NCBI GenBank assembly: GCA_965116475.1
Contig: OZ220691.1
Span: 2,112,001-2,176,000, forward strand
DNA from: Gemmatimonadota bacterium
GTDB taxonomy: Bacteria > Gemmatimonadota > Gemmatimonadetes > Palauibacterales > Palauibacteraceae
Length of the DNA: 64,000 bases
Reading direction: 5' to 3'
Below the pieces are notes generated by a model. It had not been told where the DNA came from, did no database searches, and saw only the letters and a list, made by a program, of their open reading frames with translations. A program made the position numbers and the translations under genes. Numbering within the stretch: the stretch's first letter is position 1; the number at the start of each line of letters is the position of its first letter. Positions 13,547 to 55,740 of the stretch are shown piece after piece.

Positions 13547-16500
13547 TCACGCGCGTCATCGCGTGGTCGATCCGGAACCGGCTCCTCGTGCTTCTCGGGA
13601 CCGCCGCGATCATCGGCGCGGGCCTTTGGTCCGTGCGTACGACGCCGCTCGATGCGATCCCGGACCTCTCGGATGTCCAGGTCATCGTCCAGACCGACTT
13701 CGCGGAACAGGCCCCGCAGATCGTCGAGGACCAGGTGACGTACCCGATCGCGTCCGAGATGCTGAAGGTGCCGGGCGCGCGCGTCGTGCGCGCATTTTCC
13801 TTCTTCGGGCTCAGCCTCGTGTACGTGATCTTCGAGGACGGCACGGACATCTACTGGGCCCGTTCCCGCGTGCTCGAATACCTGAACGGAATCCGGCGGC
13901 AGTTGCCGGAGAACGTCGAACCCGTGCTCGGCCCGGACGCGACGGGCGTGGGCTGGGTCTACGAGTACACGCTCGAATCCGACAGCCTGGACCTCGCCGA
14001 ACTGCGCACGCTCCAGGACTGGTACCTCCGCTATCAGCTGACCGCGGTGCCGGGCGTGGCCGAGGTCGCGAGCCTGGGCGGGTTCGTGAAGCAGTACCAG
14101 GTGGAAGTGAACCCGGAGCGGCTGCGCGCGTTCGACATCCCCGTCACGCGCGTGTCGCAGGCGATCGGCGACCACAACATCGACATCGGGGCTCGCGTCC
14201 TCGAGATGGGCGGGCGCGAATACATGATTCGCGGCCTCGGCTACCTGCGGGGGACCGTGGACATCGAGAACGTGGCCGTCGGATCGACGCCGAACGGCAC
14301 ACCGATCCGGGTGGCCGACGTGGCGATCGTGCAGGAAGGCCCGGCTCCCCGGCGCGGCGTCGCGGATCTCGACGGCCGGGGCGAGGTCGTGGCCGGGATC
14401 GTCGTCATGCGCTTCGGCTCGGACGCACTCGAGACGATCGAGCGGGTCAAGGAGCGGCTGGAGGAGATCAACGCGGGGCTGCCCGCCGGGACCCGGCTGC
14501 GGCCGGCCTACGACCGGAGCGACCTCATCCACCGGGCGATCGACACGCTACGCGAGAAACTCGTGGAGGAATCGCTCATCGTCGCGGCCGTGGCGCTGAT
14601 CTTCCTGCTCCACGTCCGCTCGGCGCTCGTCGCGATCGTGACGCTGCCCCTCGGCATCCTCATCTCGTTCATCGTCATGCGCTGGATCGGCGTGAACGCC
14701 AACATCATGAGCCTCGGCGGGATCGCCATCGCGATCGGGGCGATGGTGGACGCGGCCATCGTCATGGTCGAGAACATGCACAAGCATCTCGAGCGCGCGG
14801 CACCCGGCACATCTCGCTGGGACGTGGTCCTCGAGAGCGCGAAGCAGGTGGGTCCGCCCCTCTTCTTCTCCCTCCTCATCATCACGTTCAGCTTCCTTCC
14901 GGTGTTCGCGCTCGAGCAGCAGGAGGGCCGGCTGTTCAAGCCCCTCGCGTTTACCAAGACGTTCGCCATGGCGGGGTCCGCGTTCCTCGCGATCACGCTG
15001 GTTCCCGTGCTCATGGGGTATCTCGTGCGCGGGCGGATCCGTCCGGAGCGGGCCAACCCGGTGAATCGCGTCCTGCGCTGGCTCTATCGACCCTTCCTGG
15101 GCTTCGCGCTGCGCCGCCCATGGCTCGTGGTCTGCGCCGCCGTGGCGCTGCTCGGGGCCACGATCTTCCCGTGGCAGCGGCTCGGCAGCGAGTTCATGCC
15201 GCCGCTGCAGGAGGGGTCGATCCTCTTCATGCCGACCACCGTGCCGGGGGCGTCGATCGCCCAGGCGCGGGAGATCATGCGGTACCAGGACAGCGTCCTC
15301 GCGTCGTTTCCCGAGGTTGAGCGTGTGTTGGGGAAAGCGGGGCGCGCGGAAACCGCCACGGATCCGGCCCCGCTCGACATGTTCGAGACGACGATCACGC
15401 TGCGGCCGCCGGAGGATTGGCGCCCCGGCGTGACGTACGCCGGGCTGCTCGCGCAGATGGACGAGGCGGTCGCGCTCCCCGGCGTGACCAACGCGTGGAC
15501 GATGCCGATCAAGGGACGCATCGACATGCTCGCCACCGGCGTGCGCACCCCGGTGGGGATCAAGATCTTCGGACCGAATCTCGACACGCTGCAGGCGCTC
15601 GGGGAGGAGGCTGAGCGGATCGTGCGCCGGATCCCCGGGACGCGGAGCGCGTTCGCGGAGCGCGGGGTCTCCGGGTATTACGTCGACATCGATGTCGACC
15701 GGCCGGAGGCGGCGCGCTACGGCCTCAACGTCGGGGATGTGCACAACGCGATCATGGCGACCGTCGGCGGGATGAACGCGACGGTCACCGTGGAGGGGCG
15801 GGAGCGCTACGCCGTGAACGTCCGCTACCCGCGCGAACTGCGGGACGACCTGCAGAACCTGCGCGAGGTGCTGGTCCCGGTCCCCGATGGCACGCAGATC
15901 CCGCTCGGCCAGGTGGCACGCGTCGCGGCTGTCCAGGGGCCCATGGCCGTGAAGACCGAGAATGCCTTTCCCGTGACGACGATCTTCGTCGATATCGAGG
16001 GAGTGGATGTCGGGAGTTACGTGGACGAGGCCCGGCGCGTCGTCGCATCCCAACTCGAACTTCCCAGCGGGTACTCCCTCGTGTGGAGCGGGCAATACGA
16101 ATTCATGCAGCGGGTGCAGGAGCGTCTGCGCGTCGTGATTCCGGTCACGCTCGCCATCATCTTCCTGCTCCTCTACCTCAACTTCCGCGGCGTGGCCGAA
16201 TCGCTGATCGTCATGCTCGCCCTGCCGTTCTCGCTCGTGGGCGGCATCTGGTTCCTGTGGCTGCTGGGCTACAACACGAGCGTCGCGGTCTGGGTCGGGT
16301 TCATCGCGCTCGCCGGCGTGGCGGCGGAGACGGGCGTCGTGATGCTGATATACCTGGACGAGGCGTTCCGCCGCCGCCTCCGCGAAGGACGGATCGAGAC
16401 CGCCGCGGACGTGATGGCGGCGGTTCGCGAAGGGGCCCTGGAGCGGCTGCGTCCCGTGGTGATGACGGTGACGGCGATCACGGCGGGGCTGATGCCGATC

Positions 16501-37435: not shown

Positions 37436-37672
37436 TGCTTTCCTTCCTTCGGAAGTCAAACCTGCGCCCGCGAGAATTCGCGCGCTTCGTGGCTTCGCCC
37501 CTTCGCTGACCAAATTCTCCCGGGCACTGCCTTCTCCTGGCACAAGTGACGGGTTGGCTCGTCGGCGGCTCGCGGGGGCTTCGCCCGCTCGCCGGGTCAG
37601 ATGCAACCAGGCGACCAGGCTGTGGGCGATCGACCCGCTTCAACGCTCTCCTCAAGGACGGAGTACGATGGC

Positions 37673-38207: not shown

Positions 38208-39818
38208 TCAGGGTATGCCTGAAGTCCGGGCCGGGGGGCGGCAGTCGGGCCACTGGGTGCCGGGGGGCATGGTGCGCCGGTCGCGGGGCATGCGGTCCGG
38301 GTCCTCGGAGGCGAGGTAGGCGAACATCGCGGTCATCACGGCGTCGTCGCGCAGGTCCTCGAAGACGATCTTGTCGAAGGTGTCGCGGTTGGTATGCCAG
38401 GTGTAGGTGCTCGTGTCCCAGCGGTTGTCGGCGATGTTCATCTCGCTGCGGCCGGCGCCCACGTGGAAGCTGAAGGCCGGCACCCCCGCGCACAGGAAGG
38501 AGGCGTGGTCCGTGCCGCCGGATTCGGGCATCCCCGGGACCTCAAGGGTGACGAGGTCGGACAGCTCGCTCGGGATCTGCGCGAGCCACTCGCCGAAGCG
38601 CCCCGCGGCGCCGGCGAAGCCCTGCATGGGGATGAAGGTGACCGGGCCGTTCCCGTGATCGACGTTGAACACGGTGTGGGTGCGCTCGAGGATCTCGGGA
38701 TGGTCCTCGACGAAGGCGCGTGACCCGTTCAGGCCCTGCTCCTCGCCGTTCCAGAGGGCGCCGACGATCGTGCGGCGGGGGTTCGGGACGGCGTGTTTGA
38801 GGATGCGCATCGCCTCCATGATCGCGACGGCGCCCGTCCCGTTGTCGAGCGCGCCGTCGGAGCCGTCCCAGGAATCGAAGTGGCCTCCGAGGATCACGTA
38901 CTCCTCGGGTTCGGCGCTGCCGGGGATCACGGCGAACGCGTTGGAGACCGGTACCTCTCCCAGGAAACGGGCCTGTGCGTCGACGCGCAGCACCGGCCCC
39001 TGATCGTTCTCGGCCAGCCGGTACAGGAGGCCGTACGCTTCGCAGCTCAGGTCCAGGACCGGCGCCCGCTCCGCGCGGGTGCCGAAGATCTTGGTGACGC
39101 CCCAGCCCGCGGACCACTGCGAGCGGATGATGCCGGCGGGTTCGGCCGCGCTCAGCGCTTCCGGCAGCGAGCGCGCGTCGAACCCCGTGTTCCCGACGCG
39201 CTCGTCCCATTCCGCGCTGGCGCGCTCGCGCTCCGCCGCCATGCGGGTTGTCGTCTCGGGCCGCGCGAACCACTCGAGGTTGTCGGGCGCGCGGCAACTC
39301 GGCTCCGGGCGCGAGACGAGCACGAACTTGCCGCGCATCTCCGACAGCGCTGCCTCGAAGGCGCCGGGGCTGGCCGCGTCCGGCAGGATCACCACCTCCG
39401 CCTCGACGGGGCCGTCCGTGGCCGGGCTCCACGCGGCCGCCATGCCCTCGAGCGTGCGCACGCGCGGCGCGATGAGATCGATGTGGGTGATCCCGCGCTC
39501 CCAGCCGCGCCAAGTGCCGTACTGCTCCTTGTACGCCTCGATGCCCCACTCCGCGTACTTTGCGAGCGCCCAGTCGTTGGCGCCGGCCATCGCGGGCGAG
39601 CCGGTGAGCCGCGGCCCGATCGAGTCCATCATCACCTGGCCGAGTTCGTAGACCTGCGAGCGCTCGACCCCCTCCTCCCAGATCACCCGGATGACGGGGT
39701 CGTCGGACGGAAACGACTGAGCGGCCGCGGCTTGGGTTGCGCCCGGCATCAGTGAAGCCGTCAGGGTGGAGAGGCATGCCAGCGAACAGGCGAGTCCGAG
39801 ACGAACCGTGCGCTTCAT
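38208..39818 (-). CDS. Secreted M28 family metallopeptidase (carboxypeptidase Q-like)
   Basis: IGPRLTGS, GGHFDSW, DNGTG, GEEQG, TDHASF and WHT..D motifs. Confidence 0.92.
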   Translation of the reverse strand: MKRTVRLGLACSLACLSTLTASLMPGATQAAAAQSFPSDDPVIRVIWEEGVERSQVYELGQVMMDSIGPRLTGSPAMAGANDWALAKYAEWGIEAYKEQYGTWRGWERGITHIDLIAPRVRTLEGMAAAWSPATDGPVEAEVVILPDAASPGAFEAALSEMRGKFVLVSRPEPSCRAPDNLEWFARPETTTRMAAERERASAEWDERVGNTGFDARSLPEALSAAEPAGIIRSQWSAGWGVTKIFGTRAERAPVLDLSCEAYGLLYRLAENDQGPVLRVDAQARFLGEVPVSNAFAVIPGSAEPEEYVILGGHFDSWDGSDGALDNGTGAVAIMEAMRILKHAVPNPRRTIVGALWNGEEQGLNGSRAFVEDHPEILERTHTVFNVDHGNGPVTFIPMQGFAGAAGRFGEWLAQIPSELSDLVTLEVPGMPESGGTDHASFLCAGVPAFSFHVGAGRSEMNIADNRWDTSTYTWHTNRDTFDKIVFEDLRDDAVMTAMFAYLASEDPDRMPRDRRTMPPGTQWPDCRPPARTSGIP

Positions 39819-39943
39819 GGGTCGCTCCGTGAGAAGATGGAACCTGCTCGAAGGTAGGTGTGCCCAGGTGCGTTGCGAATCCCCGTCCCCGCCGGGACTA
39901 TGTGGGTCCGGTAGTCACCCTGGCCTCGAACCCCGGTCTCCTC

Positions 39944-40708
39944 ATGCGTCTTGAAGGGAAGCGTGCTCTCGTCACTGGCGGCTCGCGGAGCATCGGTCGG
40001 GCGATCGCGCTCGGACTGGCGCGCGAGGGTGCGGATGTGGCGGTCAACTACCGGGGGAGTCGTGAGGACGCGGAGAGCGCGGTCGGTGAGATCGAGACGA
40101 TGGGCCGGCGCGCGGTCGCGGTGCAGGGTTCCACGGACTCCCGTTCGGACGTCGAGCGTTTCGTCGCGGAGGCGCGCGACTTCCTGGGCGGCCTCGACAT
40201 CCTCGTGAACAACGCGGGGATCCTGAAGCGGACGCCCTTCCTCGAGATCGATGAGGGAGAGTGGGACGCCATTCAGGGCGTCAACCTGAAGGGATATTTC
40301 CTGGTCGGGCAGGCCGTCGCACGCCGCATGGTCGAGGCCGGGACGGCGGGTGCGATCGTCAACGTGTCGTCCGCCGGGCAGGCGGTGGCCGCGCCGAACC
40401 TCACGCACTACTGCGTGTCGAAGGCGGGGGTCGAGATGCTCACGAAGCAGATGGCGCTCGAACTCGCGCCCCACGGGATCCGGGTGAACGCCATCGCGCC
40501 GGGGCTGATCGAGACCGACCTGAACCGCGCCGACATCGCGCGGGCCGACTTCCGCGAGGGGCGTCTCGCCCGCATCCCGCTGCGGAAGATCGGTGCGCCC
40601 GACGACGTGGTGGGAGCCGTCGTGTACCTCGCGTCGAACGACGAGGCGAGCCTCGTGACGGGCGCCTCCCTGTTCATCGACGGCGGCCAGACGATCTGGG
40701 GCGCCTGA
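39944..40708 (+). CDS. SDR family oxidoreductase
   Basis: TGGSRSIG, NNAG, YCVSK and NAIAPG motifs. Confidence 0.95.
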   Translation: MRLEGKRALVTGGSRSIGRAIALGLAREGADVAVNYRGSREDAESAVGEIETMGRRAVAVQGSTDSRSDVERFVAEARDFLGGLDILVNNAGILKRTPFLEIDEGEWDAIQGVNLKGYFLVGQAVARRMVEAGTAGAIVNVSSAGQAVAAPNLTHYCVSKAGVEMLTKQMALELAPHGIRVNAIAPGLIETDLNRADIARADFREGRLARIPLRKIGAPDDVVGAVVYLASNDEASLVTGASLFIDGGQTIWGA

Positions 40709-40715
40709 CCGGTCC

Positions 40716-41810
40716 GTGATGGCGCGTTCCGCGCAGATCCGGTCCAGATTCTGCCCAGGCGCGGCGGCGACGCTCCCCGTGGTGGCGACGCTCGCGGTGG
40801 TGGCGACGCTGCCACTGGTGGCGTGCGGCGCCCCCGGCCCCGGCGGTTCCGACCCGCCGGCGGACGCGGCCACCTGGGACGTTCGCTTTTCCCACGTGCT
40901 CTCGACCGGCTCGGAGTTCCACCTCATGGCGGAGCGCTTCCGCGATCTCATGCTTGAGCGCACGGACGGACGGTTCCGGGTCGTCATCTATCCCTCCGGG
41001 CAGCTCGGCGGCGAGCGCGTGGCCTTCGAGCAGATCCAGGTCGGCGCGGTGCACATGGCGATCACGGGCACGCCGGTGCTCTCGAGCTGGGTGCCGGAGA
41101 CGCAGGTGTTCGATCTCCCCTTCCTGTTCGAGACCCGGGACCACGGGCTCGCGGTGATGAACGGCCCGGCGGGGGACTGGTGGCGCGAACTTCTCCTTGA
41201 GCGCACCGGCGTCCGCTCGCTCGGGTTCCTCGACTACGGGTTCCGCCACGTCTACAACCGACGCCGGCCCGTGGAGACGCCCGGGGATCTCGCCGGCCTC
41301 AAGCTCCGGGTCCTCCAGAACGCGACGTACCTCGCCGCCTATTCCGCGCTGGGCGTGCAGGCGACCCCGATGAACTACGGCGAGGTCTACTCCGCGCTCC
41401 AGCAGGGCGTGATCGACGGCGGGGAGGCGAACGCGGTCGGCTTCGTGAGCAGCCGCCTCCACGAGGTGGCGAAGTTCTACAGCTTCACATCCATCACCTA
41501 CAATCCCATCACCCTTCTCGTGAACGAGCCGTTCTATCGGGGGCTTCCCGCCGAGATCCGGAGAACTGTCGACCGTTCCGCAGCCGAGGCGCTCGCCTAT
41601 CAGAGCGAGGTCGCGCGCCGGATGGAGGCGGAGGCCATCGAGGCGATGCGCCAGGCCGGCGTGGAGATCTCGCGCCCGGATCCGGCGCCGTTCGCCGCGG
41701 CCGTCGGAGCGCGCACCCGGGACGAACTGGCGAATCGGCTGCCGGATGGCGAAGCGCTGATCGCCAGGCTGGTCGCGGAGGCGGAGCGCGCGGCCGCCGA
41801 GGGCAGGTAG
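40716..41810 (+). CDS. dctP: TRAP transporter substrate-binding lipoprotein
   Basis: YPSGQLGGE, DLPFLF, GFR, GLKLRV and YSALQQGVIDG; LVAC lipobox. Confidence 0.93.
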   Translation: MMARSAQIRSRFCPGAAATLPVVATLAVVATLPLVACGAPGPGGSDPPADAATWDVRFSHVLSTGSEFHLMAERFRDLMLERTDGRFRVVIYPSGQLGGERVAFEQIQVGAVHMAITGTPVLSSWVPETQVFDLPFLFETRDHGLAVMNGPAGDWWRELLLERTGVRSLGFLDYGFRHVYNRRRPVETPGDLAGLKLRVLQNATYLAAYSALGVQATPMNYGEVYSALQQGVIDGGEANAVGFVSSRLHEVAKFYSFTSITYNPITLLVNEPFYRGLPAEIRRTVDRSAAEALAYQSEVARRMEAEAIEAMRQAGVEISRPDPAPFAAAVGARTRDELANRLPDGEALIARLVAEAERAAAEGR

Positions 41811-41836
41811 GCTTCCCGGCCGCCATCAGGAGCGTG

Positions 41837-42991
41837 TCACACCAATAGGTCCTGCCAGAGTTGCCGGGCGAACTCTTCAGCGGGAAGGATGTCGATGCCA
41901 TCGGACGTCCGCCGGGCGCGAGCTTCCAGGCAAACGATGACTCGGCGCCCGATCGAGGGGTGGTCGCGAATGACGCTGCGGAGTCCGCGGAGATGGCGCG
42001 AGCCGATGTTGGCGCTCGCCTTGGCCTCGACCGCCACCTGCATATCACCGACCACGAAGTCGACTTCGGTCCCGCCCGCCAGCCGCCAGTAAGAAAGCTC
42101 GCCATCGAGTTCCCGGTAGCTGAGCCAGGCGGACAACTCGTGGCACACCCAGTTCTCGAAGGCCTTCCCGTACAACTCCGAGCCGGGAGCCACGGAACCG
42201 CGCCGCGCGAGCCGGTTCACGATCCCCACGTCCGCAAAATAGAACTTCGGCGCCTGGATGACCCGCCGCTTTGGGCGCGCGCGATAGGACGGGACCCAGC
42301 GAGCCAGCAGCATGTCCACCAGGACCTGGAAGTAGTTCTTCACCGTTTGCAGCGCGACGCCGCATTCGGCGGCGACGTTCGAGAGGTTGACGATCTCTCC
42401 GTCGCTCAACGAAGCCGCGTCCAGAAAGCGTGAGAAGGCGGGGAGTTGCCGGACAACCCCCTCCGCCGCGACCTCCTGGACGAGGTAGTCGTTGATGTAG
42501 GCGTCCAGGAGACGGCTGGGGCGGGAGGCCTGGTAGATGCGAGGGAGATACCCCGTGTTGAGCAGACGGGTCAGGTCGAAGTCTTCACCGAGCTCGACCG
42601 CGGTGATCCCGAGCAACTCGTAGCGGACGGCCCGCCCCCCGAGGAGATTGGCGGCGCCCCGCTTCACCTTGGTCGCGCTCGATCCGCACAGCGCGAAGCT
42701 GACGCCGCGGTTCTCCATGAGCCAATGGACCTCGTCCAGGAGCGCGGGAACCTTCTGGACTTCGTCGATGACGATCTGGCGGTTCCGGCGATTCCCCTCC
42801 GCTTCGATTTCCTCGCGCAGGAATTCCGGGTTCGTCAGGTAGCGGCGGAACTCGTCGCTCTTCAGCAGGTCGACCCAACGGCCGTCCGGATAGTGCTGCC
42901 GCAAGAGCGTGCTCTTGCCGGCCTGGCGTGGCCCCCACAAGAAGAAAGTCTCCGTGCCGGCGTCCGGCAGGCGCAGTGATCGTTTGAACAT
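41837..42991 (-). CDS. AAA+ ATPase (AAA_14) with DUF4143 C-terminal PD-(D/E)xK-like domain
   Basis: Walker A GPRQAGKST, IDEVQ, CGSS, KFYFADVG, FENWV, EVDFVV..VEAK. Confidence 0.92.
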   Translation of the reverse strand: MFKRSLRLPDAGTETFFLWGPRQAGKSTLLRQHYPDGRWVDLLKSDEFRRYLTNPEFLREEIEAEGNRRNRQIVIDEVQKVPALLDEVHWLMENRGVSFALCGSSATKVKRGAANLLGGRAVRYELLGITAVELGEDFDLTRLLNTGYLPRIYQASRPSRLLDAYINDYLVQEVAAEGVVRQLPAFSRFLDAASLSDGEIVNLSNVAAECGVALQTVKNYFQVLVDMLLARWVPSYRARPKRRVIQAPKFYFADVGIVNRLARRGSVAPGSELYGKAFENWVCHELSAWLSYRELDGELSYWRLAGGTEVDFVVGDMQVAVEAKASANIGSRHLRGLRSVIRDHPSIGRRVIVCLEARARRTSDGIDILPAEEFARQLWQDLLV

Positions 42992-42995
42992 AGCT

Positions 42996-43026
42996 TGCAA
43001 TTTATCATGATAATTTGCAGTAGCAA
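42996..43026 (-). promoter_or_regulatory. Promoter/operator of the AAA+DUF4143 gene (leaderless)
   Basis: 24-bp palindrome TGCAATTTATCA|TGATAATTTGCA (1 mismatch); on the minus strand TTGCTA...TGaTAAATT lies 7 nt before the ATG. Confidence 0.7.
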
Positions 43027-43095
43027 TGCACGTTGTCAGAGATCTTCCGGTCGCCGGGGGTTACGTATCGGGCCGGATCGCAGGTAGTGTAGAGA

Positions 43096-43569
43096 ATGAA
43101 GCGGAGGCTGCGGGCGCTCGACCGGGTGCTGGTCACGCTGGAGACGTACGCCGTCGGCGTCCTGCTGATCGCGGTCTGCGACGTGGTCCTTCTGCAGGTC
43201 CTGATGCGCTACCTCTTCGCCTATCCGAATCCGTGGAGCGAGGAGGTTTCGCGCTTCTGCTTCATCTGGGTGTCGCTGCTCGGGGCCTCGCTGGCCGTGG
43301 CGCATCGGTCTCACTTCCGGTTCGACCAGGTCACGGGGCGGCTGCCTCCGCGCGCGAGGAAGGCGGTGGAGACGTCCGCGGCGGCGGTCGTCCTGCTGTT
43401 CGCATTCGTCCTCATCGGCACGGGCATCGCCCTCATGGACCTCACCATGGGAGAGCGCTCCGCCGCGCTGAACCTGCCTGTCGCGCTCGTCTATGCCGCG
43501 GCGCCGGTGTCCGGCGTGCTGATGGCGATCCACATGCTTGCGGGTCCGACGGCCGAGGGCGGCGGTTGA
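43096..43569 (+). CDS. dctQ: TRAP transporter small permease
   Basis: QVLMRY, WSEEVSRF, 4 TM helices. Confidence 0.93.
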   Translation: MKRRLRALDRVLVTLETYAVGVLLIAVCDVVLLQVLMRYLFAYPNPWSEEVSRFCFIWVSLLGASLAVAHRSHFRFDQVTGRLPPRARKAVETSAAAVVLLFAFVLIGTGIALMDLTMGERSAALNLPVALVYAAAPVSGVLMAIHMLAGPTAEGGG

Positions 43570-44843
43570 TGGGCGGGCTCCTCCTCGGCGCTTTCGGCTT
43601 GCTCGTGCTGGCAGCGGTGCCGATCGGTTTCGCACTCGCGCTCGCGGCCGTCCTCGCGATCATCGTGGCGGATCTCCCGCTCGTCGTCATCCCGCAGCAG
43701 ATCGTCGCGGGGATGGACTCCTTCCCCATGCTCGCGGTGCCCCTGTTCATCCTCGCCGGCTACCTGATGGATGTCGGAGGGATCAGCCGCCGCCTGGTGA
43801 CGCTGGCCCGCGCGCTCGTGGGCCACCTCCCCGGAGGACTCGGGCAGGTGGTCGTCATGGCCGAGGTGTTCTTCTCGGGCGTGTCGGGCTCGACGTCCGC
43901 GGACGCGGCCGCCGTCGGCGGCATCATGGTGCCGCAGCTGACCGCGAACGGGTACGGCCGGGCGCGCGCCACCGCGATCGTCTCGGCCGCGTGCGGCATG
44001 GGGATCCTCATTCCGCCCGCCATCGTGATGGTCGTCTACGGCGTCATCGGGAACGTCTCCATCGGCGCCCTGTTCGTCGCCTCGATCGTCCCCGCGCTCC
44101 TCATCGCGGCGGGCCTGATGACGCAGATCGGGTGGCAGGCGCGAAGGGAAGGGTGGCCGCGCGGGGAGCGCGCCTCGCTCGCGGAACTCCGCCGCGCGAC
44201 GCTCGACGCCGTGCTCCCGCTCTTCATGATCGTCGTCATCCTGGGGGGCATCCGCTTCGGACTCTTCACCCCCACGGAAGCCGCCGCGGTCGCCGTCGCC
44301 TACGCTCTGCTCCTGGCCGGACTGGTGTACCGATCCCTCACCGTCGCGGAGCTATGGAGCAAGGTCGTCCAGACGGCCGTGGTGTCGGGGATGGTGCTGT
44401 TCGTCGTCGGCGCCGCGCACCTGCTGGGCTGGGTCCTCGCCGTCCTGCAGGTGCCCCAGACGCTGGCGGCATCGGTAGCGGGGATCGGCGGCGGCCCGAT
44501 CGGCTTCATGCTCCTCACGATTCTCATCTTCCTTCCGCTCGGCGCCATCCTCGAGGGCGTGCCCGCGGTCGTCCTGCTGACGCCGATCCTCCTGCCCCTC
44601 GCGACGCAGCTCGGGATCGACCCCGTGCACTACGGCGCCGTGATCGTCGCCACGCAGGGAATCTCGGTGTTCCTGCCACCCGTGGGCGTGAGCCTGCTCG
44701 TCGCCTGCTCCGTGGGAGGTGTCCAGCCGGCCGAGGTCGCGCGCCCGCTCTGGCCCTACCTCGCGCTCATGCTGGCGCTCACAATCGCCATCGCCTTCCT
44801 CCCCGACGTCGTACTCTTCCTGCCGGAACTGCTCGGGTACTGA
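43569..44843 (+). CDS. dctM: TRAP transporter large permease
   Basis: LAVPLFILAG, SGSTSADAAAVG, LIPPAI, FTPTEAA and GIDPVHYG; TGATG overlap. Confidence 0.95.
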   Translation: MGGLLLGAFGLLVLAAVPIGFALALAAVLAIIVADLPLVVIPQQIVAGMDSFPMLAVPLFILAGYLMDVGGISRRLVTLARALVGHLPGGLGQVVVMAEVFFSGVSGSTSADAAAVGGIMVPQLTANGYGRARATAIVSAACGMGILIPPAIVMVVYGVIGNVSIGALFVASIVPALLIAAGLMTQIGWQARREGWPRGERASLAELRRATLDAVLPLFMIVVILGGIRFGLFTPTEAAAVAVAYALLLAGLVYRSLTVAELWSKVVQTAVVSGMVLFVVGAAHLLGWVLAVLQVPQTLAASVAGIGGGPIGFMLLTILIFLPLGAILEGVPAVVLLTPILLPLATQLGIDPVHYGAVIVATQGISVFLPPVGVSLLVACSVGGVQPAEVARPLWPYLALMLALTIAIAFLPDVVLFLPELLGY

Positions 44844-44895: not shown

Positions 44896-45441
44896 ATGGA
44901 GACACGGGAGTTTGAGATCGGGACGGAGCGGTTGCTGCTGCGGCCGCACAGGCGGGAAGATGTGGACGACATCTTCGAGTTCGCGCGCGATCCGGAGTGG
45001 GGCCGATACCTGACGGCGCCGATGCCCTACCTCAGGGAACACGCGGTGGAGTTCGTGGAGGACCGGATCCGCACGCCGCGGGACCTGTGGCCGGTGTGGG
45101 CGATGGAGTTGGAGGGGAAGGTCGTCGGGGGCATCGGCATCGAGATCGACGTCGAACATGCGACGGGGGCCCTGGGCTACTCGCTCGCGAGGGCGCATTG
45201 GGGCCGGGGCCTGACCGTGGAGGCGGCCCGCGCCGTCGTCGACTGGGCGTTCCGCGAGCGCGGGCTCGCGAAGGTGTACGCGTACGCCGATGCGCGGAAC
45301 ACGGCGTCTCTGAGGGTGATGGAAAAGCTGGGCATGACCCGGGAGGGGCTGCTGCGCGGCCACCGGATGCTGCGGGACGAGCGCGTCGACGAAGTGCACT
45401 ACGGACTCCTCAGGGAAGAGTGGGAGAGGAGCGTCCGCTAA
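44896..45441 (+). CDS. GNAT N-acetyltransferase (RimJ/RimL-like)
   Basis: TERLLLRP, WGRGLTVEA and NTASLRVMEKLGM.REG motifs. Confidence 0.92.
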   Translation: METREFEIGTERLLLRPHRREDVDDIFEFARDPEWGRYLTAPMPYLREHAVEFVEDRIRTPRDLWPVWAMELEGKVVGGIGIEIDVEHATGALGYSLARAHWGRGLTVEAARAVVDWAFRERGLAKVYAYADARNTASLRVMEKLGMTREGLLRGHRMLRDERVDEVHYGLLREEWERSVR

Positions 45442-45448
45442 GGCTCGT

Positions 45449-46315
45449 TCACTCCGACGCGCGCATATCGCCCAGCCCCGTGGCTAGCCGTTCCACGTAT
45501 TCTACTACTGGGTCCCACACTTCCTCGAACTCCCGCTCAGCACCCGGAGGGAGCAGGTGAGCCAGGTTGCGCTGCCAGTCAGCGTGGAACTCGCCCTTGC
45601 GTTCCAGAAGACGGCCCGGGTCGACAACCTCCAATTCGACTTTTCTCGCCTGCAGTTTCCGGGGGAGGTTGACTCGTACCTTCCGCTCATCCACGTGCTC
45701 CAGGAGCGAGAAGATGTCGTACACATCTCTCGATACGGCGTGAAGCCGTTGGCCGAGGACGGCTCGGACCTTCTCGGACATGACCTCTTCCAGGGCATAA
45801 CACGTCAACTGGGGCCGCCCCAGATCGTCGGCGTCGGAGAAAGGATGGAATAGCGAGCGCGACACGGGGCTGAACGTCAGCACTTCGTTCCGCGTGATGT
45901 CGAGGCGAAGGCCGGGTGGAGATCCACCCGAAGCATGGGGTCCGCGCCAGTAGAGCGTGAACTTGAGACTCTCGCGCCCGTACTCGTCGTCAATGACTCT
46001 CAGCCTCGGTGCCCGGGCCGCGAAGTCGATGCCGCTGGCCCCCTGAGCCGCTGCGAATGCCTCGCCGACCGATTTCTCAAACTCCTCCCAACCAAACCAC
46101 TGGGTTGCTGTGAAGTCGAGGTCTTCCGAGAACCGGTAGTGTGGGAAGTAGCACTTCCGCAGGCAGGTCCCACCCTTGAAGACCAGCCGCCTGGCCAGGA
46201 AAGGGTGTCCCGCGAGACCTCGGAGGGCCCATCCGAGCGCGTAATCCAACTCCACGATGCGAGGCTCGACACCCGCCGTTGCCGCGCGTCGGCGGATCTC
46301 CGCGTCCTGAATCAT
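45449..46315 (-). CDS. abiEii: AbiEii/AbiGii-family nucleotidyltransferase toxin (type IV TA)
   Basis: FKGGTCL, RFSEDLDF, EK and RDVYD motifs; ATGA overlap with the antitoxin. Confidence 0.93.
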   Translation of the reverse strand: MIQDAEIRRRAATAGVEPRIVELDYALGWALRGLAGHPFLARRLVFKGGTCLRKCYFPHYRFSEDLDFTATQWFGWEEFEKSVGEAFAAAQGASGIDFAARAPRLRVIDDEYGRESLKFTLYWRGPHASGGSPPGLRLDITRNEVLTFSPVSRSLFHPFSDADDLGRPQLTCYALEEVMSEKVRAVLGQRLHAVSRDVYDIFSLLEHVDERKVRVNLPRKLQARKVELEVVDPGRLLERKGEFHADWQRNLAHLLPPGAEREFEEVWDPVVEYVERLATGLGDMRASE

Positions 46316-47139
46316 GGCTGCTCGCGGAGCCCTTCCTCCGGGAGATTGATTTCGACGCGCCAGCGAGTGACGATCCGATGGGGCTTCCGTGGAGTGGACG
46401 GATCGAGTCTGCTGATGCCAGCCGTGAGAAGATCCAACCATTCGTGCAGCATCGCCCGCTTCGGAGCATGGGTTAGCTCAACGCTCTCGACCAGAAACCC
46501 GAGCCGCTTCACGACCGCGCCGGAACCAAAGCGGCGCAGGTAATTCGTCATGCGGTCCCACTTGAAGTCGCCATCTCCTGCGAGTAGTGCCTCCGTGACC
46601 TGGGCCACTCCTCCGCTTAGCTCGGGCCTGTCGAGGCAATCGATGATCGTTTTTTCCCGATCCGTGACCTTGACTTGGGATTCTCCGGCACGGTATGCGT
46701 GGCAACCGAAGAACTTCCGAGGCTTCACCCGGACGATCCGAAACCGCATCCCGAGAACCTGCAGGGTGCGGCGCTCCTTGCGGGCGGTCGTCTGCACGTA
46801 CGTAACGCGGGGGATCTGGTCGGTGAGGTTCCAGTAGTTGAGGGCAGACCAGTAGCTGACCATGGCGTGACTCACCAGGTGTCCGGCAACGACGTGGGCG
46901 TCCTCGGTCCAGGTGCGGTCGGGGCCGGCTTCGAGTGGAACGATGAGGTACTTCCCCTTCTCAAGGCGTTCCAGCCAGCCCTTGTCGACGAGTCGTGCCA
47001 GCGCATCCCTGGTCGCCCTGCCTTCGCCAAGCACATCGTACGCATCCTTTGTTGCGAAGATCTGCTTCCCGCTCGCGGCCAAGGTGGTGAGAAATGACGC
47101 TTCGGCGTCGCTGAGGCTTATTGTATTACGATACGCCAT
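46312..47139 (-). CDS. abiEi: AbiEi-family antitoxin/transcriptional regulator
   Basis: wHTH (LVDKGWLERLEKGKY), SYWSALNYWNLTDQIP, TDREKTIIDCL and KRLGFL motifs. Confidence 0.92.
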   Translation of the reverse strand: MAYRNTISLSDAEASFLTTLAASGKQIFATKDAYDVLGEGRATRDALARLVDKGWLERLEKGKYLIVPLEAGPDRTWTEDAHVVAGHLVSHAMVSYWSALNYWNLTDQIPRVTYVQTTARKERRTLQVLGMRFRIVRVKPRKFFGCHAYRAGESQVKVTDREKTIIDCLDRPELSGGVAQVTEALLAGDGDFKWDRMTNYLRRFGSGAVVKRLGFLVESVELTHAPKRAMLHEWLDLLTAGISRLDPSTPRKPHRIVTRWRVEINLPEEGLREQP

Positions 47140-47150
47140 TACCGCTCCCA

Positions 47151-47177
47151 GATACGTCAATCACGTATCGAAATATA
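47151..47177 (-). promoter_or_regulatory. Putative abiE operator and -10 element
   Basis: Inverted repeat GATACGT-CAATC-ACGTATC (47151-47169) just downstream of minus-strand TATATT. Confidence 0.6.
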
Positions 47178-48825: not shown

Positions 48826-49965
48826 TCAATAAATGCCGGGGATGATGCGGTATTTCACGCGCGCCTGGTACTCGGCCCACTTCTCGGGGCCGTATTTCTC
48901 GGCGCAGAACTTGTCGTCGAAGCGCTGCCGGAAAATGAACAGTCCGACGATGAAGACGAAGTAGGTCCAGGCCCAGGGGTTGGCGAAGTAGCCGAACACG
49001 AGGGCGATCGAGAGGGCGAAGCAGCCCTCGCCCATGTAGTTGAAGTGGCGCGCGACGCCCCACAGGCCGCTGCACAGGATCTTGCGGTCGCCGGCCTCGA
49101 TGTACTCGGGTGCGATGAGGCCGAGGAACTGGCGCTCGGGCCAGCGCTTGAAGGTGTACTTCTGCATGTTGGCGCCGCGCGTGATGCCCCACCCGACCAG
49201 GAACAGCGCCGGGGCGCCGATCAACCACACCTGCCTCCACGGCGCCGCGAAGCCGGGGTCCGGGTACACGGCCAGACCCCACAGCGGAAGGATGTAGAGC
49301 CACCCGTACACCAGGATCCCGCCCCAGATCATCTTGAAGCCGAGCTTCTCGTGGATCACGTCGTAGGTGTAGAGCTGGACGCGCTCGAAGACGAAGTAGT
49401 CGAAGACGTAGAAGGCGAGGAACGCGGCATAGAGGAAGACGCCGGGGTTGGAGTCCGCGCCGAAGAGTCCGTAGTGGTACGCGGCGCCGGAGAGCGCGTT
49501 CAGCGACAGCATGGTCCCGCCGACGACGTACAGGAACATCTTCACGTCGAAGCGGTCGCCGAAGAACGACATCTCGAGGACGCGCCCTTCCCACAAAGCG
49601 GCGAGCGGCCGCCCCACCTTGCCGCGCGACCCGCCGAACACGGCGAGGAGGGCGAAAACGAGACAGAGGACGGTGCCGCCGGCGACCTGGTAGACGGTGG
49701 ACCGGTAGAACCAGTCCCGCGGCATGCCGGTCAGTTCGAGCGCCCACACGAGTTCCGCGAGCACGAACACGAGGAGGCCGTTCAGCCGGTAACTGCGGGG
49801 TTCGCCGGTCTCCGCGTCGACGACGTAGCCGGGCACCCGACGACCCGGCAGGACGAGTTGTACCACGAAGAATGCGGCGCAGATCGCCAGCGGCGTGAGG
49901 AAGCCGGCCAGCGCTTCGGTCCCGGACAGCTCGAACAGGTGGCCGATGCCGAGCCATTCAATCAT
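48826..49965 (-). CDS. ERG4/ERG24-family sterol reductase
   Basis: YRLNG, FDVKMF, DVIHEKLGF, ANMQKYTFK, SGLWGVARHFNYMGE, CAEKYG..W..Y..RVKYRIIPGIY; ATGA overlap. Confidence 0.88.
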   Translation of the reverse strand: MIEWLGIGHLFELSGTEALAGFLTPLAICAAFFVVQLVLPGRRVPGYVVDAETGEPRSYRLNGLLVFVLAELVWALELTGMPRDWFYRSTVYQVAGGTVLCLVFALLAVFGGSRGKVGRPLAALWEGRVLEMSFFGDRFDVKMFLYVVGGTMLSLNALSGAAYHYGLFGADSNPGVFLYAAFLAFYVFDYFVFERVQLYTYDVIHEKLGFKMIWGGILVYGWLYILPLWGLAVYPDPGFAAPWRQVWLIGAPALFLVGWGITRGANMQKYTFKRWPERQFLGLIAPEYIEAGDRKILCSGLWGVARHFNYMGEGCFALSIALVFGYFANPWAWTYFVFIVGLFIFRQRFDDKFCAEKYGPEKWAEYQARVKYRIIPGIY

Positions 49966-50417
49966 CGAAAAAGATCCTCTCCGGGGTGCGCGGCCGCCTG
50001 CCTGAGCCAGCTCACGAGGAGGCCCTCGTCCGGCTCGTCGCCTTCGTGGATGTGGAAGTAACGCACATGCTCGTGCTTCGAGTCCACCGGCGGCACGGGT
50101 CTGAGCGAGGCGCCATTGAGGAAGGTCACCTTGATGTACCGCGTGAAACAATGGAACGAGAGGAACCAGCCCTGGTCCTCGATGCCGTAGAAGGGAGAGT
50201 TCCACCGGACAGCCTTGCGCGCGCCGGGCACGACGCGCTCGACCAGCCCGTCGAGGTAGCGGCCGACCCCACGTTTCCAGCCCGGCATGGCCGCGATGTA
50301 GGCCTGGACGGGCGCGTCTCCATCCCCCTTCGGAATCCGGGGATTGCCTCCGGAGAGGAGTCTCGGTTTCGCGGCCGCGGCGCCGGCGGCGCCCTCCGGT
50401 GCGTTCTCCGGGATCAG
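49962..50417 (-). CDS. DUF1801 domain-containing protein (probable CTG start)
   Basis: KPRLLSGGNPRIPKGDGDAPVQAYIAAMPGWK...KAVRWNSPFYG; the conserved block extends upstream of the first ATG (50288). Confidence 0.85.
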   Translation of the reverse strand: MIPENAPEGAAGAAAAKPRLLSGGNPRIPKGDGDAPVQAYIAAMPGWKRGVGRYLDGLVERVVPGARKAVRWNSPFYGIEDQGWFLSFHCFTRYIKVTFLNGASLRPVPPVDSKHEHVRYFHIHEGDEPDEGLLVSWLRQAAAHPGEDLFR

Positions 50418-54627: not shown

Positions 54628-55740
54628 TCAGGCTCCCGAGCGCGGCGGCTTGCGGGCCAGGAAGAAGAACATCGGAGTGAAGATCCCGGCCTTGCCACCC
54701 GCGACCAGTGCGTCCGCTGTCCGGTTCAACATTGAGCTCACTGCGGCGGTACCCTCCGGAAACGCTCTCAACCTCTCGCCGACTGTCAGCACCAGATTCG
54801 TCAGCGCGCGGCCAACGGGTGTCCGCGGAATGCTCCTGAGGTTGAGGTCGCGACCCTGCAGAGCGCGGTACCAGGGCGTTGTCGGGTCCGCCGCGGGGGC
54901 GCGATCATGGGATTCGACGAGTTCGAATCCCGCCGTGCGCAGCGCGATGTCTATCTCCGAAGAGCGCGCGACATCCGGCAGCGCATCGCCCGCCACGATG
55001 TCCTGCTTGATCCGCACGTGTTCGGCGTCCCGTGGATCGAAGTCCTCGGTGAGGCACCAGTCGTAGCCCGCGATGCAGGCCCCCCGACGCAGGACGCGGA
55101 AGATCTCCCGGAACGCCGCCGTCTTGTCCGGTGCGTGCGGCATGGACTCGATGGCGATGGCGGCATCGTATCGGTCCTCGCTCTCGGGTATCTGCATGTA
55201 GTCGCCGTGGATAAAGCGGCACAGAGATTCGACATCCCGGGTGTGTTCCTTCGCGCGCTCAATCTGGTAGGCGTTGTTGTTGATGCCTACGAAGCTCGCC
55301 CCGGAATAGCGGGCCAGGGCGCCCATCGGTCCCCCGACTCCGCATCCGACATCGAGCACCCGCATCCCCGGTGCAAGGGACAGGTGATCGGCGAGAAAGT
55401 GCTGATGCCTGAGCAGCGACGTTTTGAAGCTCTCGCCCCGGCGCCGGGGAGCGAAGTGAAAGGACCGCCCCCAGCCGAACTCGTAGAAATCCGTGACCAG
55501 GTCGTAGTAGTGATTGACGAACTCCCGATAACGCTCTCGTCTGCCCTCCACACCGGCATCGTGGATGCCGGTGTATTGCTCGACCACCGACTTCACTTCG
55601 TCCGGGGCGAGGTCGCCGAGAGATCGAGCGTCCGATTGCTTTGCGGGTGTAGGGGTCACCCAATTCGTCCCGTTGAGTTCACAGGGTTGCCCTGAGAGTC
55701 GCGCGGGAAGGAACACCGATGCGCCGACGTCCGCAAGCAT
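54628..55740 (-). CDS. Sterol 24-C-methyltransferase (SMT/ERG6-like)
   Basis: YYDLVTDFYEFGWGRSFHFA, LDVGCGVGGP, GINNNAYQ, IE..HAP, YDW and GIFTPMFFFLARKP; start uncertain. Confidence 0.9.
   Translation of the reverse strand: MLADVGASVFLPARLSGQPCELNGTNWVTPTPAKQSDARSLGDLAPDEVKSVVEQYTGIHDAGVEGRRERYREFVNHYYDLVTDFYEFGWGRSFHFAPRRRGESFKTSLLRHQHFLADHLSLAPGMRVLDVGCGVGGPMGALARYSGASFVGINNNAYQIERAKEHTRDVESLCRFIHGDYMQIPESEDRYDAAIAIESMPHAPDKTAAFREIFRVLRRGACIAGYDWCLTEDFDPRDAEHVRIKQDIVAGDALPDVARSSEIDIALRTAGFELVESHDRAPAADPTTPWYRALQGRDLNLRSIPRTPVGRALTNLVLTVGERLRAFPEGTAAVSSMLNRTADALVAGGKAGIFTPMFFFLARKPPRSGA

Follow-up and report, generated by a model that had tools for sequence, protein, structure and literature searches.

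How a gene for a candidate defense ATPase came to lie, in antisense orientation, inside a transporter operon, and whether the short direct repeat around it is the footprint of a transposition, are the questions raised by a locus in the 64,000-nucleotide stretch of Gemmatimonadota contig OZ220691.1 that we analyzed (hereafter, the window). The genome that holds the window is a single contig of 3.62 Mb with ~70% GC, labelled G000 among the genomes of its genus. In this genome, a gene encoding a 384-aa ATPase-nuclease, together with its upstream region (the cassette), separates dctP from dctQ and dctM, the genes for a tripartite ATP-independent periplasmic (TRAP) transporter. A preliminary description of the window had noted two copies of the octamer GCAGGTAG, one at 41803-41810 that takes in the TAG stop codon of dctP and another at 43080-43087, 8 nt before the ATG of dctQ; the 1277 bp from 41811 to 43087 were interpreted as an element that was mobilized in trans and inserted with a target-site duplication (TSD) or through microhomology. 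Both octamers are located exactly where described, but comparison of related genomes leads us to a different history, namely a single old landing of the cassette followed by inheritance, allele exchange and deletion together with the locus, to which we assign a probability of about 0.75. The features of the locus are listed below, with alleles that carry the cassette denoted filled.

40716..41810, plus strand: dctP, TRAP periplasmic solute-binding protein (Pfam DctP, E 7.7e-73, residues 58-332; orthologs in 18 further genomes of the genus)
41803..41810, plus strand: left copy of GCAGGTAG, consisting of the last dctP codons and the TAG stop; elsewhere among the filled alleles, this alignment column is occupied by CGCCCGTAG, AGCCGGTAG or AGCTCATAG
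41811..41836, no strand: 26-nt spacer between the convergent stop codons of dctP and the ATPase-nuclease gene, genus-specific and outside the portable unit (cross-genus homology ends at the stop codon)
41837..42991, minus strand: ATPase-nuclease gene, 384 aa, with AAA_14, winged helix-turn-helix (wHTH) and DUF4143 (PD-(D/E)XK) domains (Pfam; PADLOC PDC-S01)
42992..43041, minus strand: promoter/operator region travelling with the gene, with a putative sigma-70-like site CTGACA-18-AATTAT (43039..43010) and a palindrome (42996-43019)
42985..43014, plus strand: outward-facing promoter-like site TGAACA-18-GATAAT directed toward dctQM, inside the same palindrome (consensus match only)
43042..43095, no strand: lineage-specific spacer before dctQ, containing the right copy of GCAGGTAG at 43080-43087, common only to right-flank class 1 (G003, G023 and G042; see below)
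43096..43569, plus strand: dctQ, TRAP membrane component (Pfam DctQ, E 2.4e-34)
43566..44843, plus strand: dctM, TRAP membrane component (Pfam DctM, E 1.3e-109)

This layout bears out what the preliminary description reported of the gene order. The gene is antisense between dctP and dctQ, all three TRAP proteins match their respective Pfam families, and the operon is indeed split, given that in nine relatives dctP is followed directly by dctQ and the three dct genes are contiguous. The palindrome, with 13-nt arms and 92% complementarity, is located just upstream of the ATG of the antisense gene. No transposase or integrase family was found by Pfam in the cassette or elsewhere among the 46 scanned open reading frames (ORFs) of the window, and no terminal inverted repeats at the cassette edges are present among the 25 inverted pairs listed of the 31 found.

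We searched for orthologs of the gene in 36 genomes of the genus and compared the locus in 20 of these, to which the search for dctP was confined. The gene (92-94% amino acid identity) is represented in 9 of the 36 genomes, by one copy in each and always in the TRAP locus. The 20 genomes show three states of the locus.

Gene present (nine genomes): G000, G003, G013, G017, G020, G023, G043, G051, G042
Empty, with dctP directly followed by dctQ (nine genomes): G002, G006, G007, G010, G012, G014, G015, G016, G022
Scarred, with a spacer of 115-116 nt (two genomes): G008, G011

Thus, with nine empty and two scarred alleles, the gene is extra DNA relative to many related genomes, as had been proposed, and no cargo other than the cassette or its scar is seen at the dctP-dctQ site in the 20 genomes. 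The spacing between dctP and dctQ in the empty alleles ranges from a 4-nt overlap to 67 nt. The tight empty junction of G016 and G022 reads ...GGCGGCCGA TCCAGCGAGTCACGGTGAGCGG ATG, with a similar sequence in G002; the junction of G014 reads ...CGG TAG CGGGCCGAGAGTGAGCGG ATG, and that of three empty genomes ...GAGCGC CG ATGA. The tight empty alleles of both deep clades of the genus (see below) share the junction ...GGTGAG(N)GG ATG, which is found in no filled allele; this sharing suggests that an old empty haplotype persists beside the filled one. In alignments with the filled allele, the spacers of G008 and G011 match a segment that begins 34-40 nt within the coding sequence and extends to 49-65 nt upstream of the ATG, with identities from 63/81 to 76/97, alignment scores of 33-40 (the maximum in 300 shuffles being 18) and a mutated start codon. 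Judging from these alignments, the two scars are deletions of ~1.1 kb of the coding sequence that left an orphan operator and the first ~12 codons. The opposite kind of decay is seen in G042 (loci L029 and L085), where the cassette is intact (92.7% amino acid identity) and the TRAP genes around it have decayed: the cassette is directly adjoined by the ortholog of the GNAT gene found at 37601 in the window, both the M28 peptidase gene and dctP have been deleted, and only a fragment of dctQ (residues 41-81) remains.

These alleles allow a direct assessment of the octamer pair. An insertion with TSD predicts an empty junction of the form ...GCAGGTAG TGTAGAGA ATG, which occurs in none of the nine empty or two scarred alleles; neither does any empty allele read …GCAGGTAGTGTAGAGAATG, the sequence predicted in the preliminary description, which had itself named a junction at odds with the octamer as the observation that would speak against it. 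The dctP stop codon occupies the same alignment column in all eight filled alleles that retain dctP, and the bases that precede it differ, whereas the right flanks of the filled alleles fall into two unrelated classes.

dctP end GGCAGGTAG: G000, G023
dctP end CGCCCGTAG: G003, G017, G043
dctP end AGCCGGTAG: G013, G051
dctP end AGCTCATAG: G020
Right-flank class 1, containing GCGCAGGTAGTGTAG: G000, G003, G023, G042
Right-flank class 2, of unrelated sequence and containing no such octamer: G013, G017, G020, G051

Both copies of the octamer accordingly occur together in only two of the nine filled genomes (G000 and G023), and at least five of the nine lack one or both (G042 has lost dctP, and the right flank of G043 is off its contig). 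Furthermore, in G003, G023 and G042 the right octamer is located ~115 nt from dctQ rather than 8 nt. The length of 1277 bp given for the interval 41811-43087 is correct, but the claim that its removal restores a tight dctP-dctQ junction does not hold for these three genomes; because they, the other members of class 1, contain ~100 nt more between the octamer and dctQ, the tight cassette-dctQ junction of the window appears to be a secondary deletion. The octamer pattern itself is rare, with three matches in the window, the third on the minus strand at 14241, against 0.41 expected. When a 60-nt segment at the dctP end was compared with the 104-nt spacer before dctQ, a shared octamer or longer word of any sequence was obtained in 10% of Markov simulations and in 18% of equally spaced pairs of segments from the GC-rich window. 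The best local alignment between the left and right flanks is likewise at the level of chance (p = 0.20 against 1000 shuffles).

Several features of the right flanks deserve mention in their own right. That of G023 (L026) contains a tandem duplication of ~11 nt that includes the GCAGGTAG motif (…tcgcaggtagta tcgcaggtagtg…). The class 2 flanks of G017, G051 and G013 (L027, L025 and L030, respectively) encompass a small ORF preceded by an AGGAGG box, the stop codon of which overlaps the dctQ start (…TTCGAATGA…); this ORF consists of 9 codons in G017 and is longer in G013 and G051, and its position suggests that it may restore translation of dctQ by coupling. Two further flank likenesses detected by eye, CTTCC(C)GG(C/T)CGCC in the two flanks of the window genome and CGGGCCG shared with the empty spacer of G014, were discarded, being not kept in other alleles.

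The preliminary description had also suggested a search for excised junctions. Four sequencing runs were compared as contigs, in which starts, strands and expression levels are unreadable and uncovered parts are uninformative. Contigs identical to the window bridge positions 41606-43254 in two runs, and no excision joint at the octamer is present in the contigs of the four. A single contig, obtained from a sponge metagenome in an RNA-library run, skips the cassette (from 41797 to 43106); it has 27 other letters at the joint, shows a junction of the GGTGAG(N)GG ATG kind and reads like the empty haplotype.

The actual limits of the portable unit become apparent from its occurrence outside the genus. 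Relatives of the protein at 85-90% amino acid identity are encoded in other metagenome-assembled genomes (MAGs) of Longimicrobiales and in MAGs labelled Gammaproteobacteria and Acidimicrobiia; at 70-75% identity they are found in many phyla, among the 7999 of 8000 scored candidates that reached E 1e-20 or better. A TRAP match is present in only 8 of 80 related loci, seven of these in records titled Candidatus Palauibacter (from sponge metagenomes) and the eighth, a distant one (~33% identity), in a record titled Binatia. Six cassettes from other Longimicrobiales MAGs show 83-86% nucleotide identity to the window over a segment that extends from ~43034-43043 down to 41834-41850 and ends abruptly on both sides; across other genera and phyla, the upstream limit of nucleotide homology falls at ~43020-43043. 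The portable unit (~41837-43041) therefore comprises the CTGACA box, the palindrome and the coding sequence up to its stop, and leaves out both 41811-41836 and 43042-43087, in contrast to the limits 41811-43087 proposed previously. Some of these six cassettes have ychF on one side and DUF1761/HMGL-type genes on the other, the rest follow an aminotransferase gene, and mobility genes are missing from the vicinity of all six. Because cassettes of 83-86% nucleotide identity are found in related genera in no fewer than two other contexts, the unit is horizontally portable; its edges bear no resemblance to a recombination site. In one of the non-TRAP contexts (L088, L090 and L092), the cassette stop codon is replaced and the protein is 8 residues longer, corresponding to the 392-aa forms in the databases.

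The regulatory part of the unit is conserved along with the gene. In 53 of 79 loci from different phyla, the palindrome core ATCATGAT precedes the start codon by a fixed distance. A promoter scan yielded two sites against 0.1 expected, both in the palindrome region, and no intrinsic terminator was found between the convergent dctP and ATPase-nuclease genes. Two matches to Rfam, with E values of 0.4 and 0.71, are at chance level and far under the gathering scores.

The age of the insertion can be gauged from synonymous divergence (dS), which we estimated pairwise by the Nei-Gojobori method (NG86) for 21 genome pairs. For the cassette gene, dS is 0.17-0.36, and for dctP, dctQ and dctM in the same pairs it is 0.16-0.55; the gene evolves with a nonsynonymous-to-synonymous ratio (dN/dS) of ~0.1, and purifying selection is also detectable in dctQ and dctM of the filled genomes. 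Because the dS of the gene matches that of the flanks and the gene and flank trees share supported splits, the gene appears to have been at this locus for approximately as long as its alleles have diverged. The insertion is thus old and not the result of a recent mobilization. The tree of the housekeeping genes (rpoB+gyrB, 18 genomes) consists of two deep clades, each of which includes filled and empty genomes, so that at least 5 presence/absence changes are needed on this species tree and 6 on the dctPQM tree. Divergence at the locus compares with that of the housekeeping genes as follows.

Between the two deep clades: rpoB dS 0.66-0.71, gyrB 0.44-0.58, cassette gene 0.27-0.36, dctPQM 0.31-0.41
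G023-G020: rpoB dS 0.13, gyrB 0.11, cassette gene 0.36, dctPQM 0.35
G051-G013: rpoB dS 0.06, gyrB 0.08, cassette gene 0.17, dctPQM 0.20

Divergence of the locus is decoupled from that of rpoB and gyrB, being lower between the deep clades and higher in the close pairs. A difference in evolutionary rate alone cannot produce both directions of mismatch, and hence these values point to homologous recombination between species in which entire alleles of the locus are exchanged. A case in point is G023, which is the species-level sister of G020 and G011 and yet carries a class 1 locus that groups with G000 and G003. A tree of the proximal junction (the last 80 codons of dctP and the first 80 codons of dctQ) is poorly resolved, with 2 of 14 branches well supported, and still requires 5 changes; in this tree, the empty G016 and G022 pair weakly (82/87), whereas the tree of the whole locus pairs them with the filled G023 and G003.

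Four other explanations can be weighed against this evidence, two of which concern the octamer itself. The segment 41811-43087 could be a discrete element that was inserted with an 8-bp TSD (GCAGGTAG), or through microhomology, and was mobilized in trans, as the preliminary description had it: the octamer is exact at both places, its left copy terminates with the dctP stop codon, the pair is also present in G023, and only 0.5% of simulations produce that specific octamer in the right spacer. Without bias toward one word, however, a shared octamer is expected at the 10-18% level; the pair is kept in two of the nine filled genomes, removal of the segment leaves no tight junction in three genomes of the same flank class, the predicted junction is missing from all empty and scarred alleles, the cross-genus limits (~41837 and 43041) are not those of the octamers, and the contigs from four runs hold no excision joint. 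Conservation, chance level, empty-allele sequence and cassette limits jointly lead us to reject the present pair as a TSD, and we regard this explanation as the least probable of all. Alternatively, the right octamer might be a displaced piece of a dctP 3' end that stayed behind when a donor allele replaced the resident one through imprecise recombination, in which case the two copies would be truly homologous without being a TSD. The best local alignment of the left and right flanks extends to 13 of 16 positions with one gap, and the motif is tandemly duplicated in G023; given that this alignment is no better than those of shuffled sequences (p = 0.20) and that the motif is not found in class 2 right flanks, such an origin is improbable. 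Most likely, the pair is a coincidence, with one copy being the dctP end and the other lying in a lineage-specific spacer.

The two remaining alternatives concern the way the cassette reached its scattered distribution. Repeated independent, site-specific insertions into the dctP-dctQ spacer as a preferred target in different Palauibacter lineages would explain why filled alleles are scattered over the species and locus trees (5-6 changes) and why there are two classes of right flanks. However, the trees of the gene and of its flanks are in agreement, their dS values match pair by pair, all eight filled alleles with a retained dctP have the left junction in the same alignment column, the distribution of the flank classes follows the locus tree, and in other genera the cassette resides outside TRAP operons; taken together, these observations make recurrent insertion very improbable. 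Slightly less remote, albeit still decidedly improbable, is a homing-like selfish spread, in which the ATP-driven PD-(D/E)XK nuclease would cut an empty dctP-dctQ allele (or one without the operator) and repair from a filled allele would copy the cassette in, as happens with free-standing homing endonuclease genes. Presence or absence at one fixed site between conserved genes, flank sequences that travel with the cassette, a locus history decoupled from the species history, intact catalytic residues and the lack of mobility genes are all in line with this mechanism, which, if true, would account for a transposase-free PDC-S01 gene crossing species and phyla with its flanks moving along. The existence of many divergent paralogs with private operators fits a cellular or defense role better, though, and the AAA+/wHTH/PD-(D/E)XK architecture is unlike that of known homing enzymes; moreover, empty alleles persist beside filled ones in the same community, the gene was deleted in some lineages, and ordinary recombination accounts for the pattern equally well. 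The dN/dS of ~0.1 over long times is compatible with either mode of spread.

The protein itself belongs to a known candidate family. AAA_14 (PF13173) is recognized with 63.3 bits (cut-off 27) and DUF4143 (PF13635) with 104.9 bits (cut-off 28.1), and seven PDC-S01 models of PADLOC match, the best being PDLC04790 (E 1.2e-52); the characterization of the gene as defense-like thus stands, insofar as it belongs to a listed candidate family. NCBIfam contains no family for the protein, and a sequence search of the PDB gave no match up to E 1. In an alignment of 22 sequences that included four paralogs from the same genome (27-41% identity), the Walker A (G20, R22, G25, K26, T28) and Walker B (D76, E77) residues and R120 are invariant, as are E279, D311 and E322-x-K324. 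From the family description in PMC3424549, in which DUF4143 is a PD-(D/E)XK domain of unknown function, E279, D311, E322 and K324 can be predicted to form the PD-(D/E)XK catalytic motif. The AlphaFold (AF2) model (predicted local distance difference test, pLDDT, 90.9; predicted template modelling score, pTM, 0.92) resembles ORC1/Cdc6, the archaeal ATPases SSO1545 and PAB2304, STAND NTPases and RuvB; CARF-nuclease entries match as well, supposedly via the C-terminal domain of the model. PMC12988326 describes PDC-S01 as an ATPase fused to a PD-(D/E)XK nuclease and a phage-defense candidate, and places it among the most abundant defense-candidate gene families in prokaryotes. By its sequence, the gene is an ordinary member of this candidate defense family (PDC-S01, AAA_14+DUF4143, COG1373 'predicted AAA+ ATPase'): it has the same Pfam domains, PADLOC models and ATPase plus PD-(D/E)XK build, with no difference in the protein, and what is particular to it is the placement inside a TRAP operon and the history of presence and absence.

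The closest paralog in the same genome is only 42% identical to the window copy. Five of the six AAA_14/DUF4143 paralogs of G000 (26-42% identity to the window copy) are located within ~200 kb, at 2.09-2.29 Mb (L002-L005 and the window copy itself), and L006 is at 0.60 Mb. By eye, L002, L003, L004 and L006 each have their own, different AT-rich stretch resembling an inverted repeat just upstream of the start codon.

Comparison with known kinds of elements helps to place the cassette. Insertion sequences and other transposons with TSDs share with it the short direct repeat that flanks extra DNA in the window genome; they differ in that the cassette is single-copy and has neither a transposase nor terminal inverted repeats, and the repeat is not conserved and lies off the true limits of the cassette. 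Instead of several near-identical copies or sites, there is one copy at the same locus in all nine genomes. With respect to integrative islands, there is no tyrosine or serine recombinase among the 46 ORFs, no supported flank repeat, and the site is an operon spacer. The cassette shows none of the tested hallmarks of an insertion sequence, transposon or integrase island. 'Morons' are free-standing single-gene inserts that carry their own promoter, and defense genes are swapped via flanking homology in chromosomal hotspots. Like these, the cassette consists of one gene with its own promoter and no mobility genes, has conserved genes on either side, is present in some close relatives and not in others, and is exchanged with its flanks; unlike them, it occupies a site that is not multi-cargo in the 20 genomes, and no terminator was detected. 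By analogy, the cassette may be likened to promoter-carrying single-gene inserts exchanged by flanking homology. A second parallel involves the controller (C) proteins, which, acting at C-boxes, autoregulate restriction-modification genes. Here, too, a palindrome covers the promoter of a nuclease gene endowed with its own helix-turn-helix, and is kept with the gene across phyla; the difference is that the putative regulator would be a domain of the ATPase-nuclease rather than a separate small protein.

Combining these lines of evidence, we propose the following scenario. The promoter/operator plus one-gene unit (~41837-43041) would have entered the dctP-dctQ spacer a single time, at an early point in the evolution of this locus within the genus, by a mechanism of which no recognizable signature remains. 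Thereafter, the unit would have been inherited with its flanks under purifying selection, have moved between species within whole dctP-cassette-dctQM alleles via ordinary homologous recombination, and sometimes have been deleted, leaving an orphan operator scar. The protein is predicted to bind the palindrome via its winged helix and repress its own promoter, and, as a DNA-binding, ATP-dependent nuclease, to attack a DNA target that may be foreign, perhaps in phage defense. Because dctQM are under purifying selection in the filled genomes, these genes must still be expressed; in filled alleles, they would be transcribed either by read-through or starting at the outward-facing promoter-like site, and the latter would tie dctQM to the cassette operator. 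With regard to the preliminary description, its observations are partly confirmed and its interpretation is partly supported.

Several considerations weigh against this scenario or parts of it. The polarity of the change, that is, which allele is ancestral, is deduced from the shared junction sequence and not proven. At dS of ~0.3, an ancestral short duplication of only some bases may have become unrecognizable, and hence a TSD could have existed at the time of insertion. Among other flanking direct repeats sought in seven filled genomes, that of G017 (GTATCGC...CGATACA) is nominally significant at p = 0.022 and fails the correction for seven tests, with p = 0.20-0.99 in the rest. The housekeeping baseline consists of two genes only, with NG86/Jukes-Cantor distances in a genome of ~70% GC. 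Autoregulation, nuclease activity and a role in defense are putative, as are the proposed sources of dctQM transcription, and the RNA-library contigs over the gene (~97% identical) cannot show transcription.

The surroundings of the locus contain additional genes of interest. A 390-aa ORF without a Pfam family (39815-40987, minus strand) runs antisense over the first 272 nt of the dctP frame. The DctP proteins of relatives align only from approximately residue 25-37 of the window protein; because of this and of the overlap with the antisense ORF, the true start of dctP probably lies downstream of 40716. The TRAP operon and a GNAT gene (44896-45441, plus strand) are immediately followed by a pair consisting of an AbiEii toxin (Pfam E 8.5e-34) and an AbiEi antitoxin (45449-47160, minus strand), so that the neighborhood includes a second defense-type module. 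Farther along are an ERG4/ERG24-type sterol reductase (48826-50205, minus strand; E 3.9e-36) and a methyltransferase with a sterol methyltransferase C-terminal domain (54628-55740, minus strand; E 6.8e-21), two eukaryote-like sterol-modifying genes in a bacterial genome.

The apparent TSD is thus a false lead, and no current view is overturned by our analysis. What the locus offers is a natural history of one PDC-S01 gene: a minimal portable unit of promoter/operator and coding sequence that has been maintained under long purifying selection, would have spread between species through the exchange of whole alleles rather than by transposition, and would be lost by deletions that leave an orphan operator behind. 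It also exemplifies an antisense insert that is tolerated inside an operon that stays functional. For the very abundant candidate defense family PDC-S01, the dctP-dctQ locus supplies one such case.

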